Shown: piece by piece, positions 9,983 to 63,441 of the stretch | Layout: each line of letters opens with the position of its first letter | How positions within the stretch are numbered: the first letter of the stretch is position 1 | Assembly (NCBI GenBank): GCA_963831685.1 | Contig: CAWHRJ010000004.1 | Coordinates: 64,812 to 128,811 of the forward strand | Length of the DNA: 64,000 bases | DNA from: an uncultured Pseudomonadota bacterium | GTDB lineage: Bacteria; Myxococcota_A; Polyangia; Fen-1088 | Direction: 5' to 3' | Notes under the pieces: generated by a model | What the model was told of the DNA's origin: nothing | What the model saw: only the letters and a program-made list of their open reading frames with translations | Database searches by the model: none | Made by a program: the position numbers and the translations under genes

Positions 9983-10021
9983 CCATACCTGACAGGCCAC
10001 CCCCGATAAGGAGCATTGTTT

Positions 10022-12650: not shown

Positions 12651-13069
12651 GCTCTCGGGCTGACAGCGGCTGCCGGGGGAATGGACCGATTCGCGCCATG
12701 TTCTTGCCGAGGCTCGCAGCGCTGAGCGCGGTGGCCGCCTTGCTGGCGGGAGGGTGCTTGGGCTCGACGGACGACAGGCCGGCCAAGTGGTCCTTCATCT
12801 CGGCGATGATCACCGAACCGAGCTGCGCGACCGTGAACTGTCACTCCCAGATCAGCCAGCGCGCCGGGGTGGATCTGCACGCGCGCGAGATCGGCTACTA
12901 CACGCTGAAGAACGGCTTCTACGTAATCCCGAACGACAGCGCCGATTCGTCGCTGATCTACCTGCTGAATGCGTCCGGATCACTTCGGATGCCGCCCGAC
13001 AATCCTCTGCCAACCGCCGACGTCGTTCTAATCGAGAAGTGGATCGACGACGGCGCGGCCAACGACTGA
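12647..13069 (+). CDS. small PSCyt-like lipoprotein, CX4CH variant
   Basis: ATG overlaps the upstream stop (ATGA). Has lipobox LAGGC, CATVNCH, RMPP, and a C-terminal LIEKWIDDGAAND. Confidence 0.65.
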   Translation: MSSRADSGCRGNGPIRAMFLPRLAALSAVAALLAGGCLGSTDDRPAKWSFISAMITEPSCATVNCHSQISQRAGVDLHAREIGYYTLKNGFYVIPNDSADSSLIYLLNASGSLRMPPDNPLPTADVVLIEKWIDDGAAND

Positions 13070-13081
13070 TTGCGGAGAGAG

Positions 13082-14251: not shown

Positions 14252-14802
14252 GACATCCCATGCGCGCACCTCAGCTCTCCCCAATGCTGTCGGCTCTGGC
14301 GAGCGCCGTGGCAGTTGTCGGGCTCGCGTCGTGCTCGACGACCGTCGCCACCGCCCCGGCAGAGCCCGCCTATGACGTAGACGTGCGCCCGATCCTGATG
14401 GTCCACTGCGCCCGTTGTCACGGGGCGGGCGGCTCTCTCAACGTCCCCACCGAGCCGACGGGACCGGACGCGGCGGTGCTGCCCGGCATCCGGACCCTCG
14501 CCGCCATGTTCCGGTCGTATCGATGTTTCCTGGATAGGTATCCGGAGGACAACGGCCAGTGCGGGTTGGATGGCGGCGCGCGTTCGGCGAGCTGCCAGCT
14601 CGGCGCGCTCTATTGGGCGAAACTCCATTCCATCAGCGCGACGATTGACCAGACCAGCGGTCCGACGCAGATGCCGCCACCCCCGGCGCAGGCGCTCAAC
14701 GACTGGGAAAAGCAGGTCCTCCGCAACTGGGAGGAGAACCCGATCTGCTCGAACTCGCCGAACCCGGATACGACCATCTGTCCGCCCGGCTCGGGCCCCT
14801 GA
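14248..14802 (+). CDS. small CxxCH lipoprotein (PSCyt-like)
   Basis: GTG 14248 overlaps the barrel stop (alternative ATG at 14260). Has lipobox GLASC, RPILMVHCARCHG, QMPPPP and LNDWEKQVLRNWEE. Confidence 0.65.
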   Translation: MRHPMRAPQLSPMLSALASAVAVVGLASCSTTVATAPAEPAYDVDVRPILMVHCARCHGAGGSLNVPTEPTGPDAAVLPGIRTLAAMFRSYRCFLDRYPEDNGQCGLDGGARSASCQLGALYWAKLHSISATIDQTSGPTQMPPPPAQALNDWEKQVLRNWEENPICSNSPNPDTTICPPGSGP

Positions 14803-48273: not shown

Positions 48274-49227
48274 CTAGCGCGCGTCGGTCTTCGTCGACCC
48301 GCGCACGTACTGGCGGGGGCTCGCGCGCAGCTGCGCCCGGAACACCCGATAGAACTGCGAATAGCTGCCGAATCCGGCTTCGTAAGCCGCCTCGAGGAGG
48401 TTGGTGAGACCGCCGTCGAGCAACACCGCGAACCTGTCGAGGCGAAGCCGGTTCCTGTACTCGACCAGCGACATCCCCTTCTGGGTCTTGAAAACACGGG
48501 CCAGGTGCGAAAGGCTGACGTTCAGCGCAGCCGCGATCTCCTTGCCGCCCATCCCCGGATTCTCGTCGAGCAGCGCGACCGTCGACGAAACGAGCCGTTG
48601 GCTCGGCGATTCGAGGGGGCGAACCGCGCGGCGCCCGAACCAGACCCGCGCGGGATCGAGCATCATCCCCAGCGCGGCGCACAGAACGGCCGTTTGCGCC
48701 TGCTTGATCTCGTCGACCACCGCGTCGGTCAGCGCCGCATCGTTGAACATCATCCCGATCGCCCCGTGCGTCGAGCGGATCGGTGTCTTGGCGACCCAGC
48801 CGCGCCCGGCGACTCGGGTCTCGCCCCCTTGGTGCTCGATGATCGGGCAGTTCTCGAACACCGTGAAGTGCGCCCCCTCGCTTTCGGAGCGATGCAGCGC
48901 CTCCAGGTCGCTCTCGCAGATATCGTAGACGATGTGGTGCTCGTCGACGACGCTGCACGAGACGTCCATCCCCCACGTCCCCAGCATCAGGTTGCGCGAG
49001 GGGTCGAGCAGGAAGATGCCCGCGCGTTTGAGCCCGATTCGATCCCGCGCCAGCTCCACGGCGCGACGGAGGATGAGGTCCGTGTCCTCGAGGAGACGGA
49101 TCTCGTCGAGCACCGCCAGCAACGGCGCCAGGCCCCCGCGCGAAGATCCCCCCACGGCTCTCGGACCCGGTGCGTCAGGCCACAAGATGCTCGGCCAGTT
49201 GGCCCGTCTCCCCGTCACCTTGAACAT
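48274..49227 (-). CDS. AraC-family transcriptional regulator with N-terminal GAF-like sensor domain
   Basis: The C-terminal HTH is IAAALNVSLSHLARVFKTQKGMSLVEYRNRLRL...EAGFGSYSQFYRVFR. Confidence 0.85.
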   Translation of the reverse strand: MFKVTGRRANWPSILWPDAPGPRAVGGSSRGGLAPLLAVLDEIRLLEDTDLILRRAVELARDRIGLKRAGIFLLDPSRNLMLGTWGMDVSCSVVDEHHIVYDICESDLEALHRSESEGAHFTVFENCPIIEHQGGETRVAGRGWVAKTPIRSTHGAIGMMFNDAALTDAVVDEIKQAQTAVLCAALGMMLDPARVWFGRRAVRPLESPSQRLVSSTVALLDENPGMGGKEIAAALNVSLSHLARVFKTQKGMSLVEYRNRLRLDRFAVLLDGGLTNLLEAAYEAGFGSYSQFYRVFRAQLRASPRQYVRGSTKTDAR

Positions 49228-49258
49228 GACCCAATATTCCCGAAACCGTGAATCCCGA

Positions 49259-50638
49259 TCAGGGCCCGATCCCCCATTTGCGGCGCAGGAGCTCGATCAG
49301 GCCGTCGAACGCGTCGCGCATCGCCCACGCCTTGTCGACGAAACCCGGCCGTCGGCCGGCTTCGTTGACGCCCGCCATCAGCGCCTCCTTGGGGCCGGCG
49401 CATCCGTTGACCTGGCGCTGCAGGGCGAGGGCCGCGCCTTCGTAGACGCGGAAGCAGGCCTCGAAGTTTCCCTGATTGTAGAGCGGGGCGCCGACGCCGA
49501 TGGCGCTGTCGATGGCGCGCGCGAGCTGTCGTCCGTCGGCCGGGCTGCAGTCGTCGAGCAGTCGCAGCGGATGCGACGGGACGTGGCGCGCGGGGGCAGC
49601 GGGAAGCGCCAGCGTGGGTGCGGGCGCGTCGTGCCGCTCGATCACCTCGAGCACGCCGTCGAACGCATCGCGCATCGCCCACGCCTTGTCGTCGAAGCTG
49701 ACGAGCGTGTCGGCCTTGCGCACGCCTGCCAGAAGCGCCTCGCGCGGCCCCGCGCACGCCTTCACTTCGTGGTCGATGGCGACGGCGGCGGAGGCGTAGG
49801 CGCGGTAGCAGCCCTCGTGGTTGCCCTGGTTGTAAGCAGGGGCGCCGACGGAGATGGCCACCTGGATGCGGTCGGCGATGACGTGGAGGCTCGCCTCCGA
49901 GCAGCCGGCGAGCAGGCTGAGCTCGTGGTGCGGCACGTTGCGCTTGACCTTGCCGCTCGTCTTCCACCTGTACGCCGCGAGCGGCGTCGCCACCTTCGCG
50001 TCGAGCATCGGTTTGACGGCGTTGATGGCCACGCCGAAGTTGAGGTTCTGCCCCTGCGTGATGATCAGCGTCGAGACGCCGACCACCTGGCCGCGCTCGT
50101 CGATGATCGGGCCGCCGGACGAACCGGGCGAGATGGGCGCGCTCAGCTGCAGCAGCGAGACCCGAGCGTCGATCTGCCGCAGCGCGCTGACCAGCCCGTC
50201 GGAGACGGTGTTGCTGAGACCGAGCGGATTGCCGATGGCCACCACGCGCTGCCCCACCTGCACGCGGCTCGAGTCGCCGAGTGACAGCGCCGGAAGCTTG
50301 TCGGCCGGCACCTTGAGCAGCGCCAGGTCGAAGGCGTCGCTGACGGCGAGGACCTCGACGCCGCCGAGCCTGCGCCCGTCGGACAACACCACCGTCGCTT
50401 CCCGAGCGCCGGCGACGACGTGCAGGTTGGTGACGATGCGTCCGTCGCTGCGCACGACGAAGCCGGAGCCGAGACCGCCCGGCACCTCGATGGTTACCAC
50501 CGACGGCATCGCGCGCGCCGCGATCTGCTGCGGCGTCAGCGGCGGCGCCGGCGGCTCGCCGGCGTACACCCTCGGACCCATGAGCAGCGTCGCGACCGCG
50601 ACGGCCTGCGCGATCGACGCGCGACATCCGAACATCAT
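49259..50638 (-). CDS. trypsin-like (S1C) serine protease with two C-terminal repeats of an unknown domain
   Basis: Signal peptide. His region GSGFVV...IVTNLHVV and Ser region SPGSSGGPIID. No PDZ. Two roughly 95-aa repeats follow, each ending KAWAMRDAFDG. Confidence 0.85.
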   Translation of the reverse strand: MMFGCRASIAQAVAVATLLMGPRVYAGEPPAPPLTPQQIAARAMPSVVTIEVPGGLGSGFVVRSDGRIVTNLHVVAGAREATVVLSDGRRLGGVEVLAVSDAFDLALLKVPADKLPALSLGDSSRVQVGQRVVAIGNPLGLSNTVSDGLVSALRQIDARVSLLQLSAPISPGSSGGPIIDERGQVVGVSTLIITQGQNLNFGVAINAVKPMLDAKVATPLAAYRWKTSGKVKRNVPHHELSLLAGCSEASLHVIADRIQVAISVGAPAYNQGNHEGCYRAYASAAVAIDHEVKACAGPREALLAGVRKADTLVSFDDKAWAMRDAFDGVLEVIERHDAPAPTLALPAAPARHVPSHPLRLLDDCSPADGRQLARAIDSAIGVGAPLYNQGNFEACFRVYEGAALALQRQVNGCAGPKEALMAGVNEAGRRPGFVDKAWAMRDAFDGLIELLRRKWGIGP

Positions 50639-51602: not shown

Positions 51603-51651
51603 CCTGCCTGCTTTCGATGAGGTGGGGGTACTAGAGGCACCAATAGGCGGA
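51603..51651 (+). promoter_or_regulatory. conserved upstream element, copy 1 (cctgcctgctttcga-N5-tgggggtact-N12-aggcgga)
   Basis: 32 of 49 positions, in three exact blocks (15, 10 and 7 nt) with identical spacing, match 58350-58398. Ends 22 nt before ATG 51674. The reading-frame relation differs between the copies, so the conservation is not coding. Confidence 0.6.
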
Positions 51652-51673
51652 AGTCCGCCCTCGCTGGACGCCG

Positions 51674-52516
51674 ATGCGAATCTCGCCCCTCAATCGGATT
51701 TTGATGACGCTCGTCGTGACCGCGGCCCTCTACGGCTGCGCCCAGAGCGAGCCGATCAATCTCTTCGTCCTCCTGCCGGACGGCGGTGGACAGTCCGGAG
51801 GGGCGACGGGAAGCGGGACCGGCGGCGACAGCTCGAGCAGCGGGGGGAACCAGGGCTCCGGCTCGGGCGGTACCGGAACTACCGGGAATGGCGGTTCCGT
51901 CGGGACGGGCGGCTCCGGTACCGGGGGCACCGTGAGCGGTGCCGGCGGCTCAACCGGCAGCGGTGGCTTGACCGGAAGTGGCGGGTCGGTCGGAACGGGC
52001 GGCTCCGCCACCGGGGGCGTGACGGGCAGCGGGGGCCTGACGGGCAGCGGTGGCCTCACAGGCAGCGGTGGCCTCACAGGCAGCGGTGGCCTCACAGGCA
52101 GCGGTGGCTCCATCGGAAGCGGGGGCACGACGGGCACCGGCGGATCGACCGGCTCGGGCGGGAAGGGCGGAACCACGGGGACGGGTGGCTCGACCGGCTC
52201 GGGCGGCACGACGGGCACCGGCGGCGCCGGTGGCGCGGCGGCCCCGACTTTCACGCAGGTCTACAAGCAGATCTTGACCGTCTACTGCGCGGGAAGTCAG
52301 TGCCACAACCCTGGGTCGCAGCGCGGGATGGCGTTCGCGACGCAATCGGGTGCCTACACCTGCGTATTGACCGTGGTGACACCGGGGAACGGCGCCAACT
52401 CCAGCTTCTACAAGACGGTCAACGGTGGGTCGATGCCCCCGGGTGGACCGAAACTGTCGGCCGCCAACCTCGCGCTCATCAAAGCCTGGATAGACGCCGG
52501 CGCGCTCAACAACTGA
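51674..52516 (+). CDS. lipoprotein with GSGGxT repeat linker and PSCyt-like domain, CX4CH variant
   Basis: Lipobox LYGC and a long Gly/Ser/Thr linker, then ILTVYCAGSQCHNPG, GSMPPGG and LIKAWIDAGALNN. Confidence 0.7.
   Translation: MRISPLNRILMTLVVTAALYGCAQSEPINLFVLLPDGGGQSGGATGSGTGGDSSSSGGNQGSGSGGTGTTGNGGSVGTGGSGTGGTVSGAGGSTGSGGLTGSGGSVGTGGSATGGVTGSGGLTGSGGLTGSGGLTGSGGLTGSGGSIGSGGTTGTGGSTGSGGKGGTTGTGGSTGSGGTTGTGGAGGAAAPTFTQVYKQILTVYCAGSQCHNPGSQRGMAFATQSGAYTCVLTVVTPGNGANSSFYKTVNGGSMPPGGPKLSAANLALIKAWIDAGALNN
52025..52114 (+). repeat. five tandem 18-nt units (ggcagcggtggcctcaca) encoding GSGGLT
   Basis: The three central units (52043, 52061, 52079) are identical; the flanking units are slightly diverged. 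Confidence 0.9.
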
Positions 52517-52571
52517 CGGGCCGCCGCGGGCTCCGCGAGATATATTTGTCACGGCGTGAGCTGATGTCCGG

Positions 52572-53576
52572 ATGGTGACAGCCCCCATCGTCTTGCTCAT
52601 CGCCGTGGCGAACACCCCCGACGGCATCGCCGCGGCGAATGAAGCTGCCGCCGCATGTTTGCAGGCGCTACCGTCCGGAGCGAAGACGGTGCTCCGCACC
52701 GTCCCGAAGGCTCCCGACGACGCCGACGTCAGCGTGGCCGCGGCGGCAGCCGGCGCGACGGCGACCGTGGTCGTGACCTGGCGAGATGCCGACCACTTGG
52801 TGAGCGACGTCCGCGTCCGCTCGACGCCGCCCGACGGAATCGTGCGGCAGACCGAGCGCAACGTCGTTTTCAGCGCGCGCGATCAGCCGGTCGAGCGTGG
52901 CCGAGCTCTCGGTTTGGTGATCGCGTCCATTCTGGACGAGGATTGGACCGCCGGGGCCAGGACGGCCAGCCCGGCGGCCGTCGTGCCCGTCGGTGTCGGG
53001 GGCGGAGCGGTCGACACGGAGGTCCCCGCGGCGATCGCCGGAGCGCACGGGCTGCCCTCGCGGGAGGCGCCGCGTTGGGCCTTGGAGGCGAACGTCATCA
53101 CGGCCGTGGACGCGCAGGAGGACTTCGACGACGCCATCGGGGGGCTCGTCGCCCTGCGGCGGTCGTTGACCCCCCGATGGGCGCTTCGGGCAGGGTTGGG
53201 TCTCCGCGTCGCAGATCTGGACGGCGCCAACGCCACGGCGCGCACCACAATGGGGTCCTTGGGCGTCGTGTGGGCCAGCCGCGGGTTCGCGGAAGGAGAG
53301 CGCGTGGGTTTCGCTGTACGAGCCGACCTTCTTGGGGTCCGCGAGGTGATCAAGCGGCAAGGGAACGACGATCGAGGGACCGTTGGGCTCTGGACGGTCG
53401 GCGCGGACGTCGTCGGGCAGATTGGTCTCGGGCTCTCGTCGGGGACGAGCCTGCTCGGGAGCGCCGGCGTCGAAGGCTTTGCCAGCGGCGAGAGCCTAGT
53501 CTCGGACGGGCAGGCGCCGGCCACGCTCTCGCGCGGCCGCCTCATCTTCGAGCTGGGCGTGCTGTCACGCTTTTAG
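52572..53576 (+). CDS. hypothetical protein, possible outer-membrane barrel domain at C-terminus
   Basis: Earliest possible start is ATG 52572, because an in-frame stop lies at 52557. The C-terminal half has beta-strand periodicity and ends GVLSRF. There is no clean signal peptide. Confidence 0.5.
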   Translation: MVTAPIVLLIAVANTPDGIAAANEAAAACLQALPSGAKTVLRTVPKAPDDADVSVAAAAAGATATVVVTWRDADHLVSDVRVRSTPPDGIVRQTERNVVFSARDQPVERGRALGLVIASILDEDWTAGARTASPAAVVPVGVGGGAVDTEVPAAIAGAHGLPSREAPRWALEANVITAVDAQEDFDDAIGGLVALRRSLTPRWALRAGLGLRVADLDGANATARTTMGSLGVVWASRGFAEGERVGFAVRADLLGVREVIKRQGNDDRGTVGLWTVGADVVGQIGLGLSSGTSLLGSAGVEGFASGESLVSDGQAPATLSRGRLIFELGVLSRF

Positions 53577-53626
53577 CTCAGCCTGCTGCCTGATGGTTCG
53601 AGGTACTCTATAAAGGAAGCGCTTCC

Positions 53627-54292
53627 ATGGCTGCCGTTCGTCCACACAAAACCGTGCTCAGCGTCGTCCCGGGCGCCGAAGCGTCCCGGGCGGAACGCCG
53701 TCCGCGCCGCAGCGATGACGAGATCCTGGCGGGGCTCCGGCGCGGCGACCTCGAGGTGGCGGAGGACTTCTACTGGCGCGTCAAACCGGTCGTGGATCGG
53801 ACGGTTCGCCGGTTGATGGGGCGGATGGACAGCGACGGAGAGGATCTCATTCAGATTGCGCTCATCCAGCTCATCGAGTCGGTGGCCCATTACCGCGGCG
53901 AGTGTGCCCTCGATGCCTGGGTCTCCACCGTCTCGGCACACGTCGTCTACAAGCACATCCGCCGCCGGCGGCTGGAGCGGACAATCTTCGCCGCGGCGCT
54001 GGACGACGACGAAGAGATCGCGGTCAGCCCGAGGTCCAGCAGCGTCGACGCGATGTCGCTTCGCCGGGCGCTCGGGCAGGTCGCCGAGCATCTGTGCACG
54101 ATGCGGGAGGAGAGATCGTGGGCCTTCCTGTTGCACGACGTCTGTGGCTACTCCCTCGACGAGGTCGCGCACATCTGCGGGATCTCGGTCGTCGCCGCCC
54201 AGAGTCGGCTCGTCCGTGGGCGCCGCGAGATCCACGACCGGATCGCGGCTGATCCTCGCCTGGCGGAGATTCTCGATCGGGGTGAGCCGTGA
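53627..54292 (+). CDS. ECF-type RNA polymerase sigma-70 family factor
   Basis: Region 2 (DLIQIALIQLIESVAHY...LDAWVSTVSAHVVYKHIRRRR) and region 4 HTH (YSLDEVAHICGISVVAAQSRLVRGRREI). Confidence 0.85.
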   Translation: MAAVRPHKTVLSVVPGAEASRAERRPRRSDDEILAGLRRGDLEVAEDFYWRVKPVVDRTVRRLMGRMDSDGEDLIQIALIQLIESVAHYRGECALDAWVSTVSAHVVYKHIRRRRLERTIFAAALDDDEEIAVSPRSSSVDAMSLRRALGQVAEHLCTMREERSWAFLLHDVCGYSLDEVAHICGISVVAAQSRLVRGRREIHDRIAADPRLAEILDRGEP

Positions 54293-55293
54293 CCACGTTC
54301 CGCTACGCCGAGCGCGCGGCCCGACTGCTCCGTGCGGCACGCGCGCGGATCCGGCCGCACCGGTCGGCGCCTCCCGAGAACGCCATCGCGGCCATCGCCG
54401 AGGCGATCGAGCGCACCGCCTCTCGGCAGCGGCGGCGGCGGGTGGCGACGGCGGCGGGGTTCGCGACCGCGATCCTGGGCGCCCTCGCGCTCGTGGCCGC
54501 CGCACCCTGGAGATCACCTGGAACTATCGCGCTCGTGCCGATGCGGGTGCCAGAGAACGTGCCGAGAGCGACGCTCGTGGCCGGCTCCGAGGTGCGCGCC
54601 ACGCTGGCGAGCGCGGACGGGCAGCTCCGGCCCCTCCCGGCCGGACACGCGTGGGTTTCGGACGAGCGGCTGCAGACCGACGCGCTGCCGGTCGCGCTGG
54701 CGGGTGAGGACGGTACGACGGTCGACCTCGAGCCGCGGTCCGACCTGAAGTTGTTGCGCGCCGACGCCGAGCAGTGGCTTCGCCTGGGACGCGGTGCTGT
54801 CGCCCTGCACGTCGCAAAGTTGAAAGCCGGGCAGCGCTTCGTCGTCTTGACACCCGACGCAGAGGTGGAGGTCCGCGGCACGCGCTTTCACGTGGCGCTC
54901 GCTTCACCCGACGAGAACTGCGGCCATGGCACGCCCACGCGCGTCGTCGTGGACGAAGGCGTCGTCGTGGTCCGCTCGGCGGCGGGGGAGGTTCGCGTTC
55001 CCGCAGGACAACGCTGGCCGGCCGCCTGTCCGGCGCCGCCTGCGGCCGAACCGCCGCCCCCATCGGTCGCGATGAGGCGCCTGCCGAGACCCGTGCTGGC
55101 GACGCCTGCTTCGACCCTGGCGACGGAGAACGACCTTTTCGGTGCCGCTTTGAGAGCCGAGCGCTCCGGAGATCGGGCCGAGGCCGCTCACCTGCTCGAC
55201 GCCCTGCTGACGAGATTCCCTCAGACCCCACTCCGAGAGAGCGCGCAGCGTGCGCGGGCGCGCATGACGGCAACCACGCTGCCGTCGCGATAG
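54289..55293 (+). CDS. FecR-domain anti-sigma factor (single-pass)
   Basis: GTG overlaps the sigma stop (GTGA). One TM helix (AAGFATAILGALALVAAA). FecR-like beta region GQRFVVLTPDAEVEVRGTRFHV. Confidence 0.75.
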   Translation: MTTFRYAERAARLLRAARARIRPHRSAPPENAIAAIAEAIERTASRQRRRRVATAAGFATAILGALALVAAAPWRSPGTIALVPMRVPENVPRATLVAGSEVRATLASADGQLRPLPAGHAWVSDERLQTDALPVALAGEDGTTVDLEPRSDLKLLRADAEQWLRLGRGAVALHVAKLKAGQRFVVLTPDAEVEVRGTRFHVALASPDENCGHGTPTRVVVDEGVVVVRSAAGEVRVPAGQRWPAACPAPPAAEPPPPSVAMRRLPRPVLATPASTLATENDLFGAALRAERSGDRAEAAHLLDALLTRFPQTPLRESAQRARARMTATTLPSR

Positions 55294-55332
55294 GCGTGAT
55301 CGTCAGCCGCCTCCATTCGAGTCCAAGATTCT

Positions 55333-56520
55333 GTGCCTCGCCGCTTCCGCCATTCGGTTCTGATAGTCATTGGTGTCTTCTCGGCCATCGCGCTGGCGCC
55401 TCGTCGTGCCCACGCCTACGCGTGGATGATCGGTCACGGTTACGCCGGCTGCGCGGGCTGTCACCTCGATCCGTCCGGCGCCGGCCTCTTGAACGAGTTC
55501 GGCCGAGAGGAGGCCGGCGACACCCTACGCTCCCGCTATGGCAGCGACCCGCCGCCGGTCGAGCCATTTTTCGGTCTCTGGAAGAATCCCGACTGGCTTC
55601 TCACCGGGGGAAGTTTTCGCGATGGGATCTTCTTCATGAAGGCAGGCGCAGCGCCCTACTCCCAGCAGAACATCTTGATGCAGGCCGACCTGCGGGTGGG
55701 CATCGACGCGGGCCGCTGGCGAGCCGCCGGAACTCTCGGCGTCCTGCCGAACGGAGACTTCCCAGCGGCGGTGGTGACGTCCAGCGGCGGCCCCAGCCTG
55801 GTGGCGCGGGAGTATTGGGTCGGCTACACGTTCGAGAATGACGCCATCTTGCTGCGTGCCGGCCGGATCAACGTGCCCTACGGCATACGATCGATCGAGC
55901 ACACGCTGTTCGTGCGGCAGGCGACGCAGACCGATATCAACGACACGCAAGAACACGGGATAGCCCTGTCTTTGCGATGGAGCGGACTCCGTGGCGAGCT
56001 CATGGCCATCGCCGGCAACTATCAGGAGTCTCCCGATGCCTACCGCCAGCGCGGCTACAGCGGGTACCTGGAATGGAGCCCGCAAGGCCGCTACGCCTTC
56101 GGCGTCAACAGCCTGGTGACCTACGCCAAACAGGACGTCTCCCTTGGGGTCGCCAATCTTCGCCAGGCTCACGGTCTGACGGTGCGGGCGTCGCCGGTCG
56201 AGAGGCTGGTCTTGCTCGGCGAGGCCGACTACGTGGCAGAAGGCTTGTCGGGCCAGCCGCACTGGAATGGCCTGGCGACGATGCTGCAGGCAGACTTCGA
56301 GCCCTGGCAAGGGTTACATTTCATCGGCACGGGCGAGACCTACGGCTCGGGGCAGCCCACGACCGAAACCTCCTGGAGCGTGTGGGGGAGCGTGGCGTGG
56401 TTCTTCTACTCGCACGTCGATGTTCGGTTCGACTACGTCCATCAGAGTCTCTCCACGCCTCCCCCCGAGGGGCGCATTCCAATCGAGACATACTTGGTCC
56501 AGCTCCATCTCTTCTTGTGA
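55333..56520 (+). CDS. outer-membrane beta-barrel-like protein with N-terminal CxxCH motif (paralog of 13082-14251)
   Basis: Signal peptide ending AHA, then CAGCHLDPSGAGLLNEFGREEAGDT. Shares MQAD, LRAGRINVPYGIRSIEH and LLGEAD with the paralog. Terminal VQLHLFL. Confidence 0.7.
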   Translation: MPRRFRHSVLIVIGVFSAIALAPRRAHAYAWMIGHGYAGCAGCHLDPSGAGLLNEFGREEAGDTLRSRYGSDPPPVEPFFGLWKNPDWLLTGGSFRDGIFFMKAGAAPYSQQNILMQADLRVGIDAGRWRAAGTLGVLPNGDFPAAVVTSSGGPSLVAREYWVGYTFENDAILLRAGRINVPYGIRSIEHTLFVRQATQTDINDTQEHGIALSLRWSGLRGELMAIAGNYQESPDAYRQRGYSGYLEWSPQGRYAFGVNSLVTYAKQDVSLGVANLRQAHGLTVRASPVERLVLLGEADYVAEGLSGQPHWNGLATMLQADFEPWQGLHFIGTGETYGSGQPTTETSWSVWGSVAWFFYSHVDVRFDYVHQSLSTPPPEGRIPIETYLVQLHLFL

Positions 56521-56528
56521 GGCCGTCC

Positions 56529-57038
56529 ATGCGGACCAAATCCCTATCTACGCTGCTGATGGTTGGGTCAGCCGGGCTCTGTCTGACGCTCGAGCCCGCC
56601 CCGGCACGGGCCATTTCTCGCTTTCCAGGCAACATGATCGACTATTTCACGCCGCCTCTCGGATACACGCCGCCCTGCCGTGTTTGTCACATCGATGGGA
56701 CAACTGGCTCGGGCAGCGTTCGAACGCCGTTCGGCATATCGATGCTCGCGCACGGGTTGACGAGCGGCCGGGGCACGCTCACCCCTGCCCTCGACGCCCT
56801 CAAGGCAGACAACGTCGACAGTGACGGAGATGGTGTGTCGGACATCGACGAGCTCGTCATGAACACCGATCCGAACACCAGCGCCGACGTCCCGCTGTCG
56901 GCGAGCGGTCCTTCTTACGGCTGCGCGGTCGCGGCCGGGCAGGGCGGAGAACCGGCCGGGCTGGCCTTGGGAGCCCTCTTCGTGGCCGCTCTCGTAGTCA
57001 GGCGCCGCCGTCCTCGTCCGCGCGTCGACGGCGAATGA
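56529..57038 (+). CDS. secreted CxxCH protein with thrombospondin-type-3-like Ca-binding repeat and MYXO-CTERM-like tail
   Basis: Signal peptide, PPCRVCHIDG and DSDGDGVSDIDE. The tail is YGCAVAAG + hydrophobic helix + RRRRPRPR. Confidence 0.7.
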   Translation: MRTKSLSTLLMVGSAGLCLTLEPAPARAISRFPGNMIDYFTPPLGYTPPCRVCHIDGTTGSGSVRTPFGISMLAHGLTSGRGTLTPALDALKADNVDSDGDGVSDIDELVMNTDPNTSADVPLSASGPSYGCAVAAGQGGEPAGLALGALFVAALVVRRRRPRPRVDGE

Positions 57039-57057
57039 CAGAGCAAGCAGGCGCTGG

Positions 57058-57582
57058 TTACCTCTTCCCTTCCGACACTCGTGTGGGCGAGGCCGATCTG
57101 GGCGCCTCGGTCCCGCGAAGGAAGTAGCTCTTGAGTCGCGCCTTGTCGCCCGCCGACAGCTTCGCCGTGGGATGCATTGGGAAGACGTAGAACCAGGGCG
57201 GCATTTCGCCGGACTCCACCTGCTCCCAGCAGGTCTCTAGATCGTCCCCGCGCTCGTCCTCGTCGACACCGCGCCACTCGGAAAAGTTGAGATGCGTGCG
57301 ACCCTTGTGGACGTCGCGGGCCATCAGCCAGGAGCCTGGTGCGAGGCGACTGTAAAGGGGCCATCGCGTTTCGTTCGTGTGGCAGTCGAAGCATGCGCGT
57401 CTCAGGATGGCCGCGACCTCGGCTGGGGCATCGATCTGAAAGCGCTCGGGCGGGTTCGTCCCAACGTCTTTGACTGGGATGAACTGGATTCCAGCCCCCA
57501 CCACGACCGACCCGAGCCCAGCGAGCTTGACCGCCCTCTTGATGCGAGAGCGCACGTCCGAACCACGACCGACCACGCTCAA
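57058..57582 (-). CDS. haem-binding-domain (Haem_bd family) membrane-anchored protein
   Basis: N-terminal TM anchor. CFDCHTNETRWPLYSRLAPGSWLMARDVHKGRTHLNFSEW and EMPPWFY match the Pfam Haem_bd pattern as I remember it. Confidence 0.8.
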   Translation of the reverse strand: MSVVGRGSDVRSRIKRAVKLAGLGSVVVGAGIQFIPVKDVGTNPPERFQIDAPAEVAAILRRACFDCHTNETRWPLYSRLAPGSWLMARDVHKGRTHLNFSEWRGVDEDERGDDLETCWEQVESGEMPPWFYVFPMHPTAKLSAGDKARLKSYFLRGTEAPRSASPTRVSEGKR

Positions 57583-58064
57583 CCGGCCGGCGTGCGGGTG
57601 CTCGCGGAGACCGGCTGGCTGCCATCGACGGTGATGCTGCCGTCCGCGGCGATCGTCACCGCGTAGTGCTGGAGCGGCGACCGCGCCGGTCCGCTCGTCG
57701 CGCTTCCGTTGCCGTCGAACGTGGAGCCGTGGCAGGGGCAGCTCAGCCCGGTGGCGATCTTGTCGGCGCTGTCATCGAGTAGGCATCCGGCATGCGTGCA
57801 TACCGCGGACATCGCGTAGACGCCGTTCGCGTCCCGCGCCACAACGAAGTTCGTCATGACCAGGAGTGATCCGACCGCCAGGGCCGATATGTTCCCCGCA
57901 CCGACGGGGCCGGTCGGTGGCGAGCCGGTCGGATTCATACAACCCGATACCGCGCCGCCCATGACCACCAGACCCGTCGCGGCGCCGGCCAGAATCAGCA
58001 GCTCGCGGCGATTGACCGCCCGTTTGGAACAAGTGGAACAGCGGTCCGTTTCGTCGTTGGCCAT
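57579..58064 (-). CDS. Rieske [2Fe-2S] domain lipoprotein with Tat-type signal
   Basis: NRRELLILAGAATG twin-Arg signal with lipobox VSGC. Cluster ligands CTHAGC ... CPCHGS. Overlaps the downstream gene by 4 nt. Confidence 0.85.
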   Translation of the reverse strand: MANDETDRCSTCSKRAVNRRELLILAGAATGLVVMGGAVSGCMNPTGSPPTGPVGAGNISALAVGSLLVMTNFVVARDANGVYAMSAVCTHAGCLLDDSADKIATGLSCPCHGSTFDGNGSATSGPARSPLQHYAVTIAADGSITVDGSQPVSASTRTPAG

Positions 58065-58349
58065 CGCCTGCCCTCCGCGAGCTCAGTGCCGTCGGGTCTC
58101 GATGAGCAGGCAGATGCGGACACCGATCACGAATCCGGATCTAGACAGCTCGAGCTGTTCGGATCGCAGATCTGATGCCCGAGCAATCGGACGTCGTCAG
58201 GCAACCCACGCATCGGTCCGTCGTGCGATCGCAGCGTGGGAGCGGCCTCGCCATACGCAGAATGTCTACTCGCCCGACCCGGCTTTGCAGGCGGTCGAGC
58301 TGGTCGTCGTCCTCCCCCGGTCTGAGCCGGCAGAAAAAAACAGCCGACG

Positions 58350-58398
58350 CCTGCCTGCTTTCGAAGGCCTGGGGGTACTGGATGCTGCAACAGGCGGA
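58350..58398 (+). promoter_or_regulatory. conserved upstream element, copy 2 (cctgcctgctttcga-N5-tgggggtact-N12-aggcgga)
   Basis: See 51603-51651. Ends 18 nt before ATG 58417. Lies in the divergent region between the Rieske operon and 58417-59859. Confidence 0.6.
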
Positions 58399-58416
58399 GA
58401 TCTGCCTAGCTCCAGG

Positions 58417-59859
58417 ATGGTTCCGCACAGTCCAGGTTCCTTCCGGCGGTGTCGCTGGGCTGCGGCGATGGCGCTGCTGTTCGTGTCCGCGCGTGCCGAG
58501 GCCGCGGGCAAGCGGATCGGCGTTCCCGAGTTCGAGGGGCCGCACGAGGCGGAGGTTCGCATGAAGGTGATGCAACTGCTCCAGGCGCACGGCTTCGAAC
58601 CGGTTCGCTCTCGCGAGATGCAGGAGGCGATGCTTCTCACCGGCGCCACCCTCGACTCGGACGACGACCTGAAGACGCTGGCCAAGGAGCTGGGGCTCTC
58701 GGCGATCGTGACCGGCGAGGTGGGACCCAGGCGGGCGAAGATCGTCGTCCACGATGGCGGCGAGGGGTCGATCCTGGGTGACGCCTCGTTCAGCGGCGCC
58801 AACTCACGCGAGCTGGTGGATCAGGTGGGGCTCACCTTCTGGAAGAGGCTCGGCGCCGACGTGGAACGCGGGCACTTGCCTGCCGGCGCGGGCGGCGAAA
58901 AGGGCAAGGCCGACTCCGACGAGGCTCCGCCGCCCAGGAACACGAAGAAGAGACGGAGATTCAGGATGGAGGAGGCGCCGCCCGAAGAGACGGCCGCGCG
59001 CCCCGTTCCGCCGGGGGACCCCTGGCTCGACTTCGAGCTGGGCCTGGGCGGGTTGAATCGCAGCCTGACGTTCACTCAGAGCGCCGCCGCGCAAGGCCCC
59101 GTCCCCTTGCGCCCCTACACTCTGGGCTTCGGGCCGATCGCCATCGCGAAGCTGGTGCTGTTCCCCTGGATGGCTGGAAAGGTCGGCAATTTCGGGCTGG
59201 AGGCCGAGATCGAGCAGGGGCTCGGGATCTCGACGCCGTCGAGCGGCGGGAGCTTCAGCAACACCGTGCACGAGTACGCCGGAGGTTTCCGGTACCGCGT
59301 GCCGTTCGCGACCACCGACGACGTCTTCTTTTCGCTGGGGCTCGGCGAGGAAGCCTTCACCTTCAACGGTCCCAACCGATCGAGTCTGGCGACCCCCGAC
59401 ACCATCTACCATTACACGCGCCTTGGAACAGGGATGCATGTGACGATCTCCGACGGGATCGGCGTCTCGTTCGGCGGGGGCTACCGTTACATTTCCAACC
59501 GCGGCGGGTCTCAGATCTCGCAGGACTTCTTTCCGCACCTGACGGTGGCGGGCGCAGACGCCGACATCGTGGCCCGCTACGCTCTCAGCGGGATGTTCGA
59601 AGTGCGCGCTGGACTGCAGTGGCGCCGCTATTGGTACGCCCCGCATTCGCAACCGGGAGACCTGGTCATGGCCGACGGCGCGGTCGATCAGTCGTTCGCC
59701 TTCACCGTGGGCATCGCCGTTCTGCTCGGCGTCAGCAGCGCTCCCAAAGCCGCAGGGGGCGCCGAGGCCCCGCCTCCGCCACCGCCCCCCAAGCCGAACG
59801 CCCATTCGCCGGAGCAGCCGTCCGATGACGACGCCAGCAGTGGACCAGATAGCGACTGA
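58417..59859 (+). CDS. hypothetical secreted/outer-membrane protein
   Basis: Signal peptide (AAMALLFVSARAEA). N-terminal alpha/beta domain (KRIGVPEFEGP...), a Lys/Glu/Pro-rich spacer, a beta-rich C-terminal half, and a Pro-rich acidic tail. Start chosen at ATG 58417, beyond the Rieske gene. Confidence 0.6.
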   Translation: MVPHSPGSFRRCRWAAAMALLFVSARAEAAGKRIGVPEFEGPHEAEVRMKVMQLLQAHGFEPVRSREMQEAMLLTGATLDSDDDLKTLAKELGLSAIVTGEVGPRRAKIVVHDGGEGSILGDASFSGANSRELVDQVGLTFWKRLGADVERGHLPAGAGGEKGKADSDEAPPPRNTKKRRRFRMEEAPPEETAARPVPPGDPWLDFELGLGGLNRSLTFTQSAAAQGPVPLRPYTLGFGPIAIAKLVLFPWMAGKVGNFGLEAEIEQGLGISTPSSGGSFSNTVHEYAGGFRYRVPFATTDDVFFSLGLGEEAFTFNGPNRSSLATPDTIYHYTRLGTGMHVTISDGIGVSFGGGYRYISNRGGSQISQDFFPHLTVAGADADIVARYALSGMFEVRAGLQWRRYWYAPHSQPGDLVMADGAVDQSFAFTVGIAVLLGVSSAPKAAGGAEAPPPPPPPKPNAHSPEQPSDDDASSGPDSD

Positions 59860-60389: not shown

Positions 60390-62306
60390 ATGGCGCCGAT
60401 GAGATCTGATATGAGGATCGTGTCCGTCCGGCGCGCGTCGTTGGTGTCGGGTTCCGTCATCGCGGGGCTCGCTCTGCTGGCGCTCGGATGCGACTTTCGC
60501 GCCGCGCAGTTCACCACCGAGGGACCCGGCGCGGGCGCCGCCGGCTCGACCGGCAGTCTGAAGCTCGGTACCGGCGGGAGCTCGACGAAGGGATCGGGCA
60601 GCGCCAGCGGGGCCGGATCGGTCGACGGCGGCGCGTCCGGTGCCGCGGGGCAGGGTGGCGCGGGGGCGACCGGTTGTCCCGCGCACTGTCCGAGCGGCCA
60701 GATCTGCCTGGGCGTGAGCTGTCAACCCGATCCCTGCCTCGCCGCCTCGGCGATGAGCTGCGCGTCGGGGACCACCTGCCGCGCCAGCTGCGTGGCGGTC
60801 GCCGACCGCTGCGCCGGCGTCACCTGCCCGCAAGGCGACACCTGCGTCGCCGGCTCCTGCGTCGCCGGCTGCTTCGCGCAGCCGTGCAACGGCGTCACCT
60901 GCCCGACGGGGCAGTACTGCAGCCCGGGGAGCGGCAAGTGCGTCCCGGTCAACGCTTGCGACGCCGCCTGCGGCGCCGGGATGGCCTGCAACCTCTCCTG
61001 CGTCGCCCCGAACCCGTGCGCAGGCGTCACCTGCGCCGCCAATCAGGTCTGCGCGGGCGGCAAATGCGTGGAGAACCTGTGCGCGGGCGTCACCTGTCCG
61101 ACCGGCAGCCTCTGCAGCAACGGGACCTGCCTGGACACTTGCAAGTGCAGCAGCAACTGCGGGACCGCCGGCAAGTGCGTGCAGGCCAGCTGCGTCTGCA
61201 CGCCGACCTGTCCCTCCGACGGAAGCCGGGCCGGGATGGACGACGGTTGCAGCGGCAAGTGCCCCTGCCCGACCGGCAGCACGCAGGCGACGAACGGTTG
61301 CTGCATGCCGAACTGCCCGGCCGACGGAAGCCGCGGCGACATGTCCGACGGGTGCGGCAAGACCTGCGCTTGCCCGAGCGGCGACGTCACCTACCAGGGC
61401 GCCTGCTGCAAGCCCAACTGCCCCAGCGACGGGAGCGAGGGCGGCAAGTCCGACGGCTGCGGCAACACCTGCAGCTGTGCCAAGGGGACGACGCTCTACA
61501 TGGGCGCCTGCTGCACCCCGAATTGCCCCACCGACGGGAGTCACGCCGGCATGTCCGACGGGTGCGGCAAGACCTGCGCCTGCCCGAGCGGCGACGTCAC
61601 CTACCAGGGCGCCTGCTGCAAGCCCAACTGCCCCAGCGACGGGAGCGAGGGCGGCAAGTCCGACGGCTGCGGCAACACCTGCAGCTGTGCCAAGGGGACG
61701 ACGCTCTACATGGGCGCCTGCTGCACCCCGAATTGCCCCACCGACGGCAGCCGCGGCGACATGTCCGACGGCTGCGGCAAGACGTGCGCCTGCCCGACCG
61801 GCGAGGTCACTTACAAGGCGGCCTGCTGTAAGCCCAACTGCCCCAGCGACGGGAGCGAGGGTGGCAAGTCCGACAGCTGCGGCGGGACGTGCGCCTGCCC
61901 GACCGGCGAGTCGATCTACAACGGCAGCTGCTGCAAGACGAACTGCCCGACTGACGGCAGCCGCGCCGGGATGTCGGACGGCTGCGGCAAGAGCTGCGCC
62001 TGCCCGACCGGCGAGACCTCCTACCAGAACGCCTGCTGCGAGCCCTACTGTCCCAGCGACGGGACCTGCGGCCAGAGCGACGGATGCGGCAGCACCTGCG
62101 GCTGCGCGGGCGGCGGCACCTGCAAGGTTGGCCTCTGCCCCGGCAAGACCTGCTCGCCCGCCTGCGGCTGCGGCGAGATCTGCAACAACGGACAGTGCCT
62201 GGGGATCATCTGCAGCCCGGACGTCGTCCAGTGCGGCTGCGGCTGTTGCAACCCCGGCGACAGCTGCGTGGCCGGACAGTGCATGCAGGGGATCAGCATC
62301 GGGTAG
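60390..62306 (+). CDS. large Cys-rich repeat lipoprotein (four GVTC-type modules + nine 35-aa CC-x-PNCP-x-DGS modules)
   Basis: Lipobox ALGC and a Gly/Ser linker. N-terminal C-x-GVTCP-x-G-x2-C-x2-G-x-C modules, then nine units CC.PNCP.DGS.G..SDGCG..C.C..G...Y.G. Confidence 0.8.
   Translation: MAPMRSDMRIVSVRRASLVSGSVIAGLALLALGCDFRAAQFTTEGPGAGAAGSTGSLKLGTGGSSTKGSGSASGAGSVDGGASGAAGQGGAGATGCPAHCPSGQICLGVSCQPDPCLAASAMSCASGTTCRASCVAVADRCAGVTCPQGDTCVAGSCVAGCFAQPCNGVTCPTGQYCSPGSGKCVPVNACDAACGAGMACNLSCVAPNPCAGVTCAANQVCAGGKCVENLCAGVTCPTGSLCSNGTCLDTCKCSSNCGTAGKCVQASCVCTPTCPSDGSRAGMDDGCSGKCPCPTGSTQATNGCCMPNCPADGSRGDMSDGCGKTCACPSGDVTYQGACCKPNCPSDGSEGGKSDGCGNTCSCAKGTTLYMGACCTPNCPTDGSHAGMSDGCGKTCACPSGDVTYQGACCKPNCPSDGSEGGKSDGCGNTCSCAKGTTLYMGACCTPNCPTDGSRGDMSDGCGKTCACPTGEVTYKAACCKPNCPSDGSEGGKSDSCGGTCACPTGESIYNGSCCKTNCPTDGSRAGMSDGCGKSCACPTGETSYQNACCEPYCPSDGTCGQSDGCGSTCGCAGGGTCKVGLCPGKTCSPACGCGEICNNGQCLGIICSPDVVQCGCGCCNPGDSCVAGQCMQGISIG
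61341..61747 (+). repeat. near-identical tandem duplication with 210-nt period inside the Cys-rich gene
   Basis: 61341-61537 equals 61551-61747 except for one mismatch (61370 t vs 61580 c). The stretch 61381-61537 is identical to 61591-61747. Confidence 0.9.
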
Positions 62307-62334
62307 GCCTCTGCCTGCCGGAGTCACCCGCGGG

Positions 62335-63441
62335 TCAGGCGGCGACTTTTCGGATGCTGCGCGCGCCGAGGAAGACCAAGACGACGGTCATCAAGAGGAG
62401 CGCGGCGATGTTGGGCCACAGATCGAAGACGCTCGCGTTGCGAAGGACCACGCCGCGCATGATGGCGATCATGTGCGTCACCGGGAAGAGGAGCCCAATT
62501 CCCCGGAGCACCATCGGCATTCCCTCGAACGGGAAGATGTAGCCGGAGAGAAACACGCCTGGAAGAAAAAGCAGCTGCCCCATCTGCTGCGCCTCCATCT
62601 GCGTCTTGGCGCGGGTGGAGATGAGAAGGCCCAAGGAGAGCAGGGCGCTCAGGTAGAAGAGGGCGATGCCGTAGAGCAGGAGGACGCTGCCGCGGATGGG
62701 GACGCCGAATCCGAACCGCATCGCTATGAGGATGAGCGTCATCTCGACCAGGCTGAGCACCAGGTAGGGGCAGAGCTTCCCCATCATCAGGCCGACGGGA
62801 TCGATCGGCGTGACGAGGAGCTGCTCGAGGGTTCCCCTCTCTCGCTCGCGCACGATGGCCCCCGCGGAGAGAACGATGCCCACCAGTTGCAGCAGCACCG
62901 CCACCAGCCCCGGGATGATGTAGTTGGCCGTTCGCCCCTCCGGGTTGAACAGGATGATTGGCTGGGCGGCGATCGCCCCCCGCCCGGGGACGACGGTCTC
63001 GAGCCGCGCCAGGTTGTCGCTGGCGGTGAGGCCGTTGACGCTGGCGAGCGCCTGCGCGCTGGCGGTCGAGTCGGAGCCGTCGATGAGCACCAGCACCTGC
63101 GCGGTCGTTCCGCGCACGCGGTCGTCGTGGAACCGCGGCGGGATGACGATGGCGATCCGCGCACGGCCGGAGCGGATCTCCTGGCGCGCCTGCCCGGGAT
63201 CGGTGGTGACGTCGATGATCTTGAAGGTCTTGGTGGCCTTCAGCTGATCGCGGAAGAGGCGGCTCTCGACGGAATGATCCTGGTCGACGATGGCGGTCGG
63301 CAGATCGTGGACGGTCTGGTCGATGAAGCCGAACAGCACGAGCTGCATGACCGGGAGCATGAGCGCCAATCGGAGCGTGCCGGCGTCGCGCACGATGTGC
63401 AGGAACTCCTTCCGGAAGACGGCCAGGAACGAGCGCCACAC
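62335..63441 (-). CDS. ABC-2 type transporter permease
   Basis: The N-terminal FRKEFLHIVRD motif, a large extracytoplasmic loop and five C-terminal TM helices. Immediately follows the ATPase gene. Confidence 0.85.
   Translation of the reverse strand: MWRSFLAVFRKEFLHIVRDAGTLRLALMLPVMQLVLFGFIDQTVHDLPTAIVDQDHSVESRLFRDQLKATKTFKIIDVTTDPGQARQEIRSGRARIAIVIPPRFHDDRVRGTTAQVLVLIDGSDSTASAQALASVNGLTASDNLARLETVVPGRGAIAAQPIILFNPEGRTANYIIPGLVAVLLQLVGIVLSAGAIVRERERGTLEQLLVTPIDPVGLMMGKLCPYLVLSLVEMTLILIAMRFGFGVPIRGSVLLLYGIALFYLSALLSLGLLISTRAKTQMEAQQMGQLLFLPGVFLSGYIFPFEGMPMVLRGIGLLFPVTHMIAIMRGVVLRNASVFDLWPNIAALLLMTVVLVFLGARSIRKVAA

Follow-up and report, generated by a model that had tools for sequence, protein, structure and literature searches.

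Cyc2 is the marker gene used for microbial iron oxidation, and it is described from Acidithiobacillus, Zetaproteobacteria and Gallionellaceae. Conduits of the Mtr/Pcc type (MtrCAB of Shewanella, MtoAB/PioAB, and OmaB-OmbB-OmcB of Geobacter) combine a barrel with heme proteins on the periplasmic side and at the surface, all encoded by adjacent genes, and in them separate deca- or octaheme cytochromes are threaded into a barrel of 20-26 strands. Cyc2 is a fused monoheme cytochrome-porin, in which a signal peptide and a single CXXCH motif precede a 16-strand barrel with OprO and OprP as structural relatives, and both heme and Fe(II) oxidase activity have been shown for it (Keffer et al. 2021, PMC8406198). 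The motif AXPXFAR[Q/K][T/Y] upstream of CXXCH is said to be unique to Cyc2, and PXL follows a few residues downstream (PMC8406198). Here we describe a pair of adjacent genes, g6 and g7, which encode a predicted porin of Cyc2-like architecture and a small heme-motif protein. They lie in a stretch of 64,000 nucleotides (nt) from an uncultured bacterium of the Polyangia (GTDB lineage Myxococcota_A; Polyangia; Fen-1088; GenBank assembly GCA_963831685.1, contig CAWHRJ010000004.1, positions 64,812 to 128,811 of the forward strand). This whole stretch is called the window, its G+C content is about 69%, and coordinates count from its first letter.

A sequence-only reading of the window had proposed that the eight kb from 51603 to 59859 form an envelope redox island with its own sigma/anti-sigma pair, and that this island is a candidate new outer-membrane conduit for electrons or heme. 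All of the genes and motifs that it named were found again as open reading frames (ORFs) where it had placed them. Its remark that no component is a multiheme cytochrome also stood when we profiled the island proteins against Pfam and NCBIfam, since g6, g7 and g8 have one CxxCH each and no multiheme family matched in the island. The two genes that carry our argument are these:

55333-56520, + strand: g6, the core gene, a predicted outer-membrane protein of 395 amino acids (aa) with a Sec signal peptide, an N-terminal CxxCH and a 16-strand porin-fold barrel
56529-57038, + strand: g7, the core partner, a predicted secreted protein of 169 aa with a CxxCH, a TSP3 repeat and a MYXO-CTERM tail, starting 8 nt after g6

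The start of g6, MPRRFRHSVLIVIGVFSAIALAPRRAHA before YAW, reads as a signal peptide: its n-region is charged, its core is hydrophobic and an AxA site follows, and the conserved alignment block of the family starts at the cleavage point. Twelve residues into the mature protein, after the AHA signal-peptidase site, stands the sequence GCAGCH, which holds the CxxCH (C40, C43, H44). The two cysteines of this motif are the only ones in g6, and there is no other CxxCH. More than 1152 homologue clusters were found; the few with a source name bear the annotation 'hypothetical protein' and are from Polyangia. A genomic scan with one genome per GTDB species yielded 228 g6 relatives, and the comparisons below use the best 80 of these loci, all of them from Myxococcota and mostly from Polyangia; L201, L202, L203 and L204-L206 are further loci compared alongside them. 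CxxCH is kept at all 80 loci and in 117 of 117 N-terminally complete homologues, and an alignment of 25 homologues (48-100% identity) has C40, C43, H44, D46, P47, G49 and G51 invariant. The AlphaFold2 (AF2) model of g6 (mean predicted local distance difference test score, pLDDT, 76) has exactly 16 strands, formed by residues 89-394. Foldseek searches of the PDB returned the 16-strand porins PorB, Omp32 and OmpT, together with OprP (2o4v, E 1e-10) and OprO (4rjw, E 2e-9), and Porin_O_P of Pfam is a weak match (E 0.005). The sole return of a PDB sequence search with the g6 profile was cytochrome c552, which was non-significant (E 2.4). The CxxCH-bearing barrel that had been read at 55333 is thus supported by an invariant motif and by a modelled 16-strand porin fold.

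The CxxCH of g7 lies in PPCRVCH (C50, C53, H54). It is followed by DSDGDG, which belongs to a calcium-binding TSP3_bac repeat, and by a tail of Gly-Cys, a transmembrane helix and RRRR, which passes the MYXO-CTERM model TIGR03901 (23.3 bits, cutoff 20). These matches bear out the combination of CxxCH, DxDxDG repeat and surface-sorting tail that had been described at 56529. Among 20 aligned g7 homologues C50, C53, H54, the TPFG segment, DSDGDG, G131 and C132 are invariant, and R159 and R160 are nearly so. CxxCH is present in all 69 g7-like ORFs downstream of g6, a set that was chosen by the motif itself. MYXO-CTERM proteins use the type II secretion system and myxosortase for their sorting. With other surface proteins of this class g7 shares the Gly-Cys, the hydrophobic helix and the Arg-rich tail, and its own cargo is a CxxCH plus TSP3 module. 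A full-text literature search for MYXO-CTERM with cytochrome brought no report of heme-motif cargo to light, a statement that does not extend to the text of a general review on Myxococcus xanthus. The sequence-only reading had proposed looking for conservation of CxxCH in homologues; its Cys and His residues are invariant in the g6 and g7 families, and because of the 117/117 and 80/80 counts for g6 and the aligned g7 homologues we do not regard the two motifs as chance occurrences.

To compare loci, the ten window genes (g1-g10) were searched by tblastn against the 80 loci; the flanks reached at most 10 kb in either direction and were shorter at contig ends. Matches were found for g7 at 64 loci, for the anti-sigma gene g5 at 7, the sigma gene g4 at 6, the Rieske gene g9 at 4, g10 at 3, g2 and g3 at 2 each, and the Haem_bd gene g8 at 1. 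By ORF and motif search g7 stands directly downstream of g6 at 69-70 of the 80 loci, and its start often overlaps the stop codon of g6. The barrel and the surface heme-motif protein therefore do belong together, as had been proposed. From these counts (64-70 loci for g7, 1-7 for g2-g5, g8 and g9) we conclude that the conserved functional unit is the g6-g7 cassette and not the whole 8-kb island, which does not hold up as one system. Named sources among the 80 loci include Minicystis rosea DSM 24000 (two loci), Labilithrix luteola DSM 27648 and Chondromyces apiculatus DSM 436, which carry the cassette, and Nannocystis. Neither the Pfam and NCBIfam models nor the solved structures and papers found here describe the pair, and the family was undescribed in the titles and abstracts returned by literature searches for YceI with Cyc2, MYXO-CTERM with cytochrome, and Myxococcota with porin-cytochrome.

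The genes next to the cassette were collected by unbiased clustering of the neighbour ORFs at the 80 loci and by a Pfam scan of 121 same-strand neighbour ORFs, which gave YceI 21 times, Cytochrome_C7 4, Cytochrom_C 3, Cytochrome_CBB3 3, Lipocalin_2 3 and Rieske 2. The commonest neighbour, a gene for a YceI-like (PF04264) periplasmic protein, is directly upstream of g6 at 29 of the 80 loci by ORF clustering (for example L071:9142-9927) and downstream instead at 2 further loci; the window island has none. Redox proteins recur in several arrangements. Rieske genes are in an operon with g6-g7 at L034, L055, L064 and L065; the order at L055 is Rieske gene, diheme protein, g6, and at L047 it is Haem_bd (65% identical to g8), g6, g7. 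A gene for a triheme protein is directly upstream at L013, L069 and L077. At L064 and L065 g6 and g7 are followed by a Tat-signal (twin-arginine translocation) Rieske gene and a gene for a 743-aa molybdopterin oxidoreductase; a YceI gene precedes g6 at L065, and the contig of L064 starts about 125 nt before g6. Together the Rieske subunit and the signal-less molybdopterin subunit (Molybdop_Fe4S4, Molybdopterin, Molydop_binding) form an arsenite-oxidase-like unit in an operon with g6-g7 (L064:1980-4664 and L065:11839-14523, both + strand). The order and the N-terminal Fe-S motif of the molybdopterin subunit resemble enzymes of the AioBA type, whose usual partners are c-type cytochromes. The window differs from AioBA in that its Rieske gene is paired with Haem_bd and there is no molybdopterin subunit, and g9 reaches 31 bits against AioB, where the cutoff is 96. 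Rieske, Haem_bd and other c-type cytochrome genes beside the barrel pair, which had been noted for this one island, thus recur in independent genomes.

From the invariant CxxCH, the porin fold, the conserved pair and the recurring Rieske, Haem_bd and cytochrome neighbours, a redox conduit across the outer membrane is the most reasonable reading of the cassette. We put at roughly 50% the probability that g6-g7 is a minimal two-heme conduit, made of a Cyc2-like porin and a monoheme partner at the surface. In its favour we also count the paralogous second cassette of the window, the cytochrome-barrel pair at L203 and the resemblance to Cyc2 around the heme motif, all described below. The mature N-terminus of g6 would provide one c-type heme attachment site in or under the outer-membrane barrel, and g7 would be a small monoheme protein that is exported and tethered to the cell surface by its MYXO-CTERM tail. 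The electron path would link periplasmic carriers, the g6 heme, the g7 heme at the surface and a redox substrate outside the cell, most plausibly Fe(II)/Fe(III) by analogy with Cyc2. In the window the g9 Rieske protein and the g8 Haem_bd protein are candidate periplasmic and inner-membrane relays; elsewhere cytochromes with two or three hemes, a Rieske-molybdopterin oxidoreductase or YceI may fill this position. Rieske centres of the bc1/Aio type have a high potential, and such a centre would suit electron uptake from Fe(II); the Aio-like enzyme of L064 and L065 would rather feed electrons outward.

Several observations weigh against this conduit. We know of no established redox role for YceI, the most frequent neighbour of g6-g7, and scattered metal-homeostasis genes stand near some loci (a CsoR-type repressor, P-type cation ATPases, a chromate transporter and MbnB-like genes). 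The g7 gene is missing from about 10 of the 80 loci, and Foldseek found no structural match to the g7 model in the PDB. The N-terminal module of g6 (about 60 residues) is of low confidence in the AF2 model, with pLDDT below 50 for residues 38-65, and an invariant distal Met or His is absent both from this module downstream of CxxCH and from g7. A hidden Markov model (HMM) built from 53 full-length Cyc2-type sequences reached at best 7.7 bits against 120 g6 homologues, with 5.6 bits at best in the reverse search, and full-length hhalign of the g6 family against Cyc2 gave a probability of 30% (P 6e-4, collinear over 331 columns).

Some of these points would fit a different function, in which g6 and g7 carry no electrons, CxxCH is a site for a metal or a non-covalent ligand, and the pair acts as porin and receptor for metal or tetrapyrrole sensing or uptake under a FecR-type regulator. 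FecR-type anti-sigma factors classically control iron uptake, which suits such a role, as do the metal-homeostasis neighbours just named, the hemerythrin found near some loci, and the YceI and lipocalin neighbours, which bind hydrophobic ligands. The lack of a conserved distal heme ligand points the same way, and domains of the g2 type vary the spacing of their motif (CX4CH, CX5CH), which is unusual for c-type heme attachment. Against this, both proteins keep an invariant, exact C-x-x-C-H, the signature of covalent heme c; genuine c-type cytochromes and Rieske proteins recur next to the cassette; and the architecture is the one seen in Cyc2, a protein with demonstrated heme and Fe(II) oxidase activity (PMC8406198). 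Moreover, no TonB-dependent transducer, TonB/ExbBD or ABC (ATP-binding cassette) importer is linked to the cassette, and no TonB-dependent receptor family was found in g1-g10 or in the scanned flanking ORFs (48274-50638 and 60390-63441). We therefore consider a metal or ligand porin quite improbable. The same absence of a TonB-dependent receptor, and of any heme-uptake gene, leaves the transport of heme, the other function suggested for the island, without specific support. The general idea of a conduit has kept its conserved CxxCH, its barrel, its paired surface protein and its recurring redox neighbours, and it has lost the single island, the claim of an undescribed type and heme transport.

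The claim that the island matches no described conduit type overlooked the monoheme Cyc2. Because Cyc2 has the architecture that g6 reproduces, it is incorrect that every described conduit relies on a multiheme cytochrome. On its model, g6 is Cyc2-like in architecture: a signal peptide, a single CxxCH near the mature N-terminus and then a 16-strand barrel of the porin O/P type, in about 400 aa. For a comparison at the level of sequence we assembled a Cyc2-type reference set, with genes retrieved from JGI/ENA metagenomes by a back-translated motif. Among the 80 contigs listed (L081-L160), 79 gave the consensus A-[IV]-P-[AS]-F-A-R-[KQ]-[YT]-x3-CxxCH-x3-P-x-L-[NT]-x-F-G-[QR]-x-F-K. The consensus of the g6 family is A-Y-[PA]-W-M-I-R-H-x-Y-x-x-CxxCH-x-D-P-S-G-G-G-L-L-[NT]-x-Y-G-R. 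Both share A-x-P-x-hydrophobic-hydrophobic-R starting 12 residues before the first Cys, and L-[NT]-x-[FY]-G-[RQ] after the heme motif, the latter aligned only via a gap of three residues. In the upstream block, AY[PA]WMIRH of the g6 family differs from AxPxFAR[QK][TY] of Cyc2: A, P (in about half of the members) and R are in register, and F, A, Q/K and T/Y are not. Downstream, g6 has a three-residue insertion (DPSGGG) where Cyc2 has the xxxPxL spacing. The g6 family thus has neither the curated motif AXPXFAR[Q/K][T/Y] nor the PXL spacing. As an observation on Cyc2 itself, N-termini of the type AxPxFAR[KQ][YT]...CxxCH...PxLNxFG occur on at least 79 metagenome contigs, and the family with the canonical motif may reach well beyond the iron oxidisers known so far.

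N-terminal hhalign of the g6 family against Cyc2 gave probabilities of 86-87%. An apparent E-value of 4.5e-6 for this alignment was rejected, because free shuffling of columns destroys CxxCH; in controls with the CxxCH columns fixed, the score was reached by 5 of 100 and 6 of 200 shuffles. A permutation confined to the flanks of the heme motif gave p = 0.078 for the upstream block and p = 0.011 for the downstream block, and fair controls as a whole place p at about 0.01-0.08. Remote homology of g6 and Cyc2 is plausible but unproven, and g6 is best kept apart from the Cyc2 members.

These comparisons bear on the possibility that g6 is a genuine but divergent Cyc2 that oxidises Fe(II) by itself, with g7 and the other neighbours accessory or irrelevant. 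The domain order, the length class (395 aa), the 16-strand fold with its OprP/OprO-like matches, and the coincidence of A, P and R upstream and LNxFG[RQ] downstream of CxxCH all agree with it, and the paralogue of g6 described below has AYPQF, which fits AxPxF of Cyc2. Opposed to it are the deviations from the curated motif and the PXL spacing, the non-significant HMM scores and the marginal flank similarity (p 0.01-0.08). In addition, g6 is tightly coupled to a second, surface-anchored CxxCH protein, a feature that is not described for Cyc2 in PMC8406198, Cyc2 neighbourhoods themselves not having been examined here. Finally, the carriers of g6 among the best 80 loci are all Myxococcota that are not known iron oxidisers, with a low-G+C subgroup suggesting a wider range; myxobacterial carriers are described only as aerobic soil heterotrophs and predators, not as lithotrophic iron oxidisers. 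A true Cyc2 acting alone is thus unlikely in our judgement. What is already known is the fused monoheme cytochrome-porin as a kind of protein; what is new is the coupled MYXO-CTERM heme-motif partner, the sequence signature and the host range.

The two-heme conduit that we favour also shares the logic of the Mtr/Pcc systems, with a barrel, heme proteins on both sides and adjacent genes. Unlike those systems it joins a single heme motif to a 16-strand barrel and has the second in a protein of about 100 aa, g7. No homology to Mtr/Pcc components was detected, and neither multiheme cytochromes nor a separate large porin was found in the island.

The other features of the island are as follows:

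51604-51632, + strand: promoter- or leader-like element CTGCCTGCTTTCGA-N6-GGGGGTACT, copy 1, upstream of g2
51674-52516, + strand: g2, a lipoprotein with a PSCyt1-like C-terminal domain, lipobox ALYGC, a Gly/Ser/Thr linker and C-terminal YCAGSQCH (CX4CH)
52572-53576, + strand: g3, a protein of 334 aa with a C-terminal Phe (...LSRF)
53627-54292, + strand: g4, a sigma-70 factor of the extracytoplasmic function (ECF) type (Sigma70_r2, PF04542; Sigma70_r4_2, PF08281; TIGR02937)
54289-55293, + strand: g5, a FecR-domain anti-sigma factor (PF04773, E 3e-11, 44 bits, cutoff 24)
57058-57582, - strand: g8, a membrane-anchored Haem_bd protein (PF14376, E 4e-37, 127.7 bits, cutoff 27)
57579-58064, - strand: g9, a Tat-signal Rieske [2Fe-2S] lipoprotein (PF00355, E 4e-14, 52.8 bits, cutoff 20.3)
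58351-58379, + strand: copy 2 of the same 29-nt element, upstream of g10
58399-59859, + strand: g10, about 486 aa, without a family match, with a soluble N-terminal domain and a barrel-like C-terminal half

The profile matches of g4 and g5 (for g4, 54.6 bits against the cutoff of 42.9 of TIGR02937, sigma70-ECF) and their 4-nt overlap, read as GTGA, agree with the sigma/anti-sigma coupling that had been proposed. Likewise, the Rieske and Haem_bd matches and a 4-nt overlap read as TTGA confirm g9-g8 as a pair convergent with g6-g7. The g9 protein has NRRELL as Tat motif, VSGC as lipobox and CTHAGC...CPCHGS as cluster motif; g8 covers positions 2-131 of the 133 of Haem_bd, and its CxxCH is CFDCH. 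The g2 protein has no direct Pfam match. Its C-terminal domain is 38% identical (E 2e-12) to a window paralogue at 12647-13069 that passes PSCyt1 (PF07635, 27.6 bits, cutoff 22), so g2 may be called PSCyt-like by transitivity. Its motif is CX4CH instead of the CXXCH expected of PSCyt1, and this CX4CH is retained in the homologue at L203. Since g3 has no Pfam or NCBIfam match, its 'barrel-like' character remains an impression. It travels with the sigma/anti-sigma pair, with homologues adjoining sigma and FecR genes at L002, L080, L201 and L203.

As in the FecI/FecR units of cell-surface signalling, the ECF sigma factor g4 is coupled at translation to an anti-sigma factor with a FecR domain, g5. 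Unlike those units, g4-g5 lack a TonB-dependent transducer that bears an N-terminal signalling domain, and the associated envelope protein is g3. Homologues of g4 with at least 50% identity occur next to g6-g7 at L002, L026, L080 and L201 only. A unit of the g3-g4-g5 type adjoins g6-g7 at L201 (g6 93% identical, window order), at L002 (inverted and downstream), at L026 and at L080. ECF sigma factors of any kind were found near g6 at 12 of the 80 loci. Myxobacterial genomes hold a large ECF complement, and by an estimate that rests on this general knowledge 12 of 80 is close to chance, so a general enrichment of ECF sigma factors near g6 was rejected. Only the g3-g4-g5 type recurs non-randomly near g6, and it does so at a minority of loci.

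In the window, the end of g5 is 39 nt from g6, and g7 follows after 8 nt, gaps which suggest that g6-g7 are probably co-transcribed with the sigma/anti-sigma genes; the 39-nt gap also makes control of island genes by the sigma factor plausible here. The 29-nt element occurs in two exact copies in the window, where none is expected, within about 60 nt of similarity. Related copies are found at L201 and at L202, the latter preceding a run of genes on one strand with an ECF sigma/FecR pair among them. We consider the element a candidate shared promoter or leader, possibly a target of the island sigma factor. Since an identical copy precedes g2 and g10, g10 may be in the same regulon. A scan for sigma-70 promoters found none, a scan for ECF-type promoters (GAAC-N15-18-CGT) gave no match in a sensible position, and terminator-like matches were at background. 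Weak homologues of g10 (25% identity) are convergent to g6 at three Myxococcaceae loci (L067, L068, L079).

We also asked how far the whole 8-kb island could be one dedicated, co-evolved system in which every gene is obligate. The intergenic gaps from g2 to g7 (55, 50, -4, 39 and 8 nt) fit one operon, the near-identical relative L201 keeps the order, and the shared element precedes both g2 and g10. Partial combinations are found as well: sigma, FecR and g3 genes accompany g6-g7 at L002, L026 and L080, sigma and FecR genes accompany Rieske-Haem_bd at L203, and a Rieske or Haem_bd gene accompanies g6-g7 at L034, L047, L055, L064 and L065. This idea is contradicted by the counts at the 80 loci, by gene order and orientation, which differ among L002, L080 and L202, by Haem_bd genes without Rieske at L204-L206, and by the absence from the island of YceI, the commonest partner of g6-g7. 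The sister genome L203, whose ABC-2 permease is 92% and whose Rieske protein is 88% identical to those of the window, also speaks against it. There, g2-like and g3-like genes stand in a single run on one strand with the sigma, FecR, Rieske and Haem_bd genes, and g6-g7 are absent. The position convergent to Rieske-Haem_bd, which g6-g7 take in the window, is occupied at L203 (6551-9333, - strand) by a gene for a 375-aa fusion of a class-I cytochrome c with a barrel (Cytochrome_CBB3 with Phenol_MetA_deg), followed by one for a 550-aa protein with five CxxCH, a different pairing of a cytochrome-barrel with a cytochrome. An obligate eight-kb system thus appears improbable.

The island is better described as three modules, none of them obligate: module A with g2, g3, sigma and anti-sigma genes, module B with g6-g7, and module C with the Rieske-Haem_bd pair. 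For the cassette, both the sigma/anti-sigma unit and the Rieske/Haem_bd pair count as optional neighbours, present at a minority of loci and in varied combinations. Any two of the modules are found together somewhere, and this speaks for a functional link among A, B and C.

Beyond the island, 48274-50638 (- strand) upstream holds genes for an AraC-family regulator (HTH_18) and for a trypsin-like serine protease (Trypsin_2) that ends in two repeated domains. Downstream, 60390-62306 (+ strand) encodes a secreted protein of 638 aa made of cysteine-rich repeats (CPSDGSxGGxSDGCGxTCxCxxG...) with no Pfam match, and 62335-63441 encodes the ABC-2 permease shared with L203.

A divergent second cassette of three genes is present at 12647-14802 (+ strand) of the window, in this order:

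12647-13069, + strand: PSCyt1 lipoprotein with CX4CH, the paralogue of g2 given above
13070-14251, + strand: g6 paralogue with CxxCH, AYPQFQFSSGTTRCSQCHYDPAGGGL (tblastn 25% identity to g6, E 1e-16)
14248-14802, + strand: CxxCH lipoprotein, found as an ORF

Upstream of it (10016-10696) we noted a lipoprotein with a Gly/Ser/Thr linker and CX5CH (CGQTMICH), a 2-oxoglutarate-Fe(II) oxygenase and a methyltransferase. The start AYPQF, which resembles the Cyc2 pattern, is typical of the subfamily of the g6 paralogue. An exhaustive search with this paralogue gave 923 representative clusters (50% identity) at E <= 1e-3. Among them a low-G+C subgroup has the pattern [SA][YF]PEMVRHGY.NC..CHVSP.GGG, and its presence suggests that the superfamily extends beyond Myxococcota.

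We tentatively raise a broader possibility, of which we are less sure than of the conduit itself: these 923 clusters may be a large, unrecognised sister family of Cyc2 in myxobacteria and, judging by sequence composition, probably in some other lineages, and with its surface monoheme partner it would be the smallest known two-component electron conduit of the outer membrane. The family is abundant in Polyangia and other Myxococcota. If the reading is right, myxobacterial carriers could trade electrons with iron, manganese or humic substances outside the cell, and marker surveys that rely on a Cyc2 HMM would miss this capacity and under-count the potential extracellular redox activity in soils. 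It would also link the MYXO-CTERM sorting pathway to redox biology. With two small proteins and two predicted hemes, g6-g7 would be a far simpler model than Mtr/Pcc for the passage of electrons across the outer membrane, and the cultured carriers Minicystis rosea, Labilithrix luteola and Chondromyces apiculatus make the cassette directly testable.

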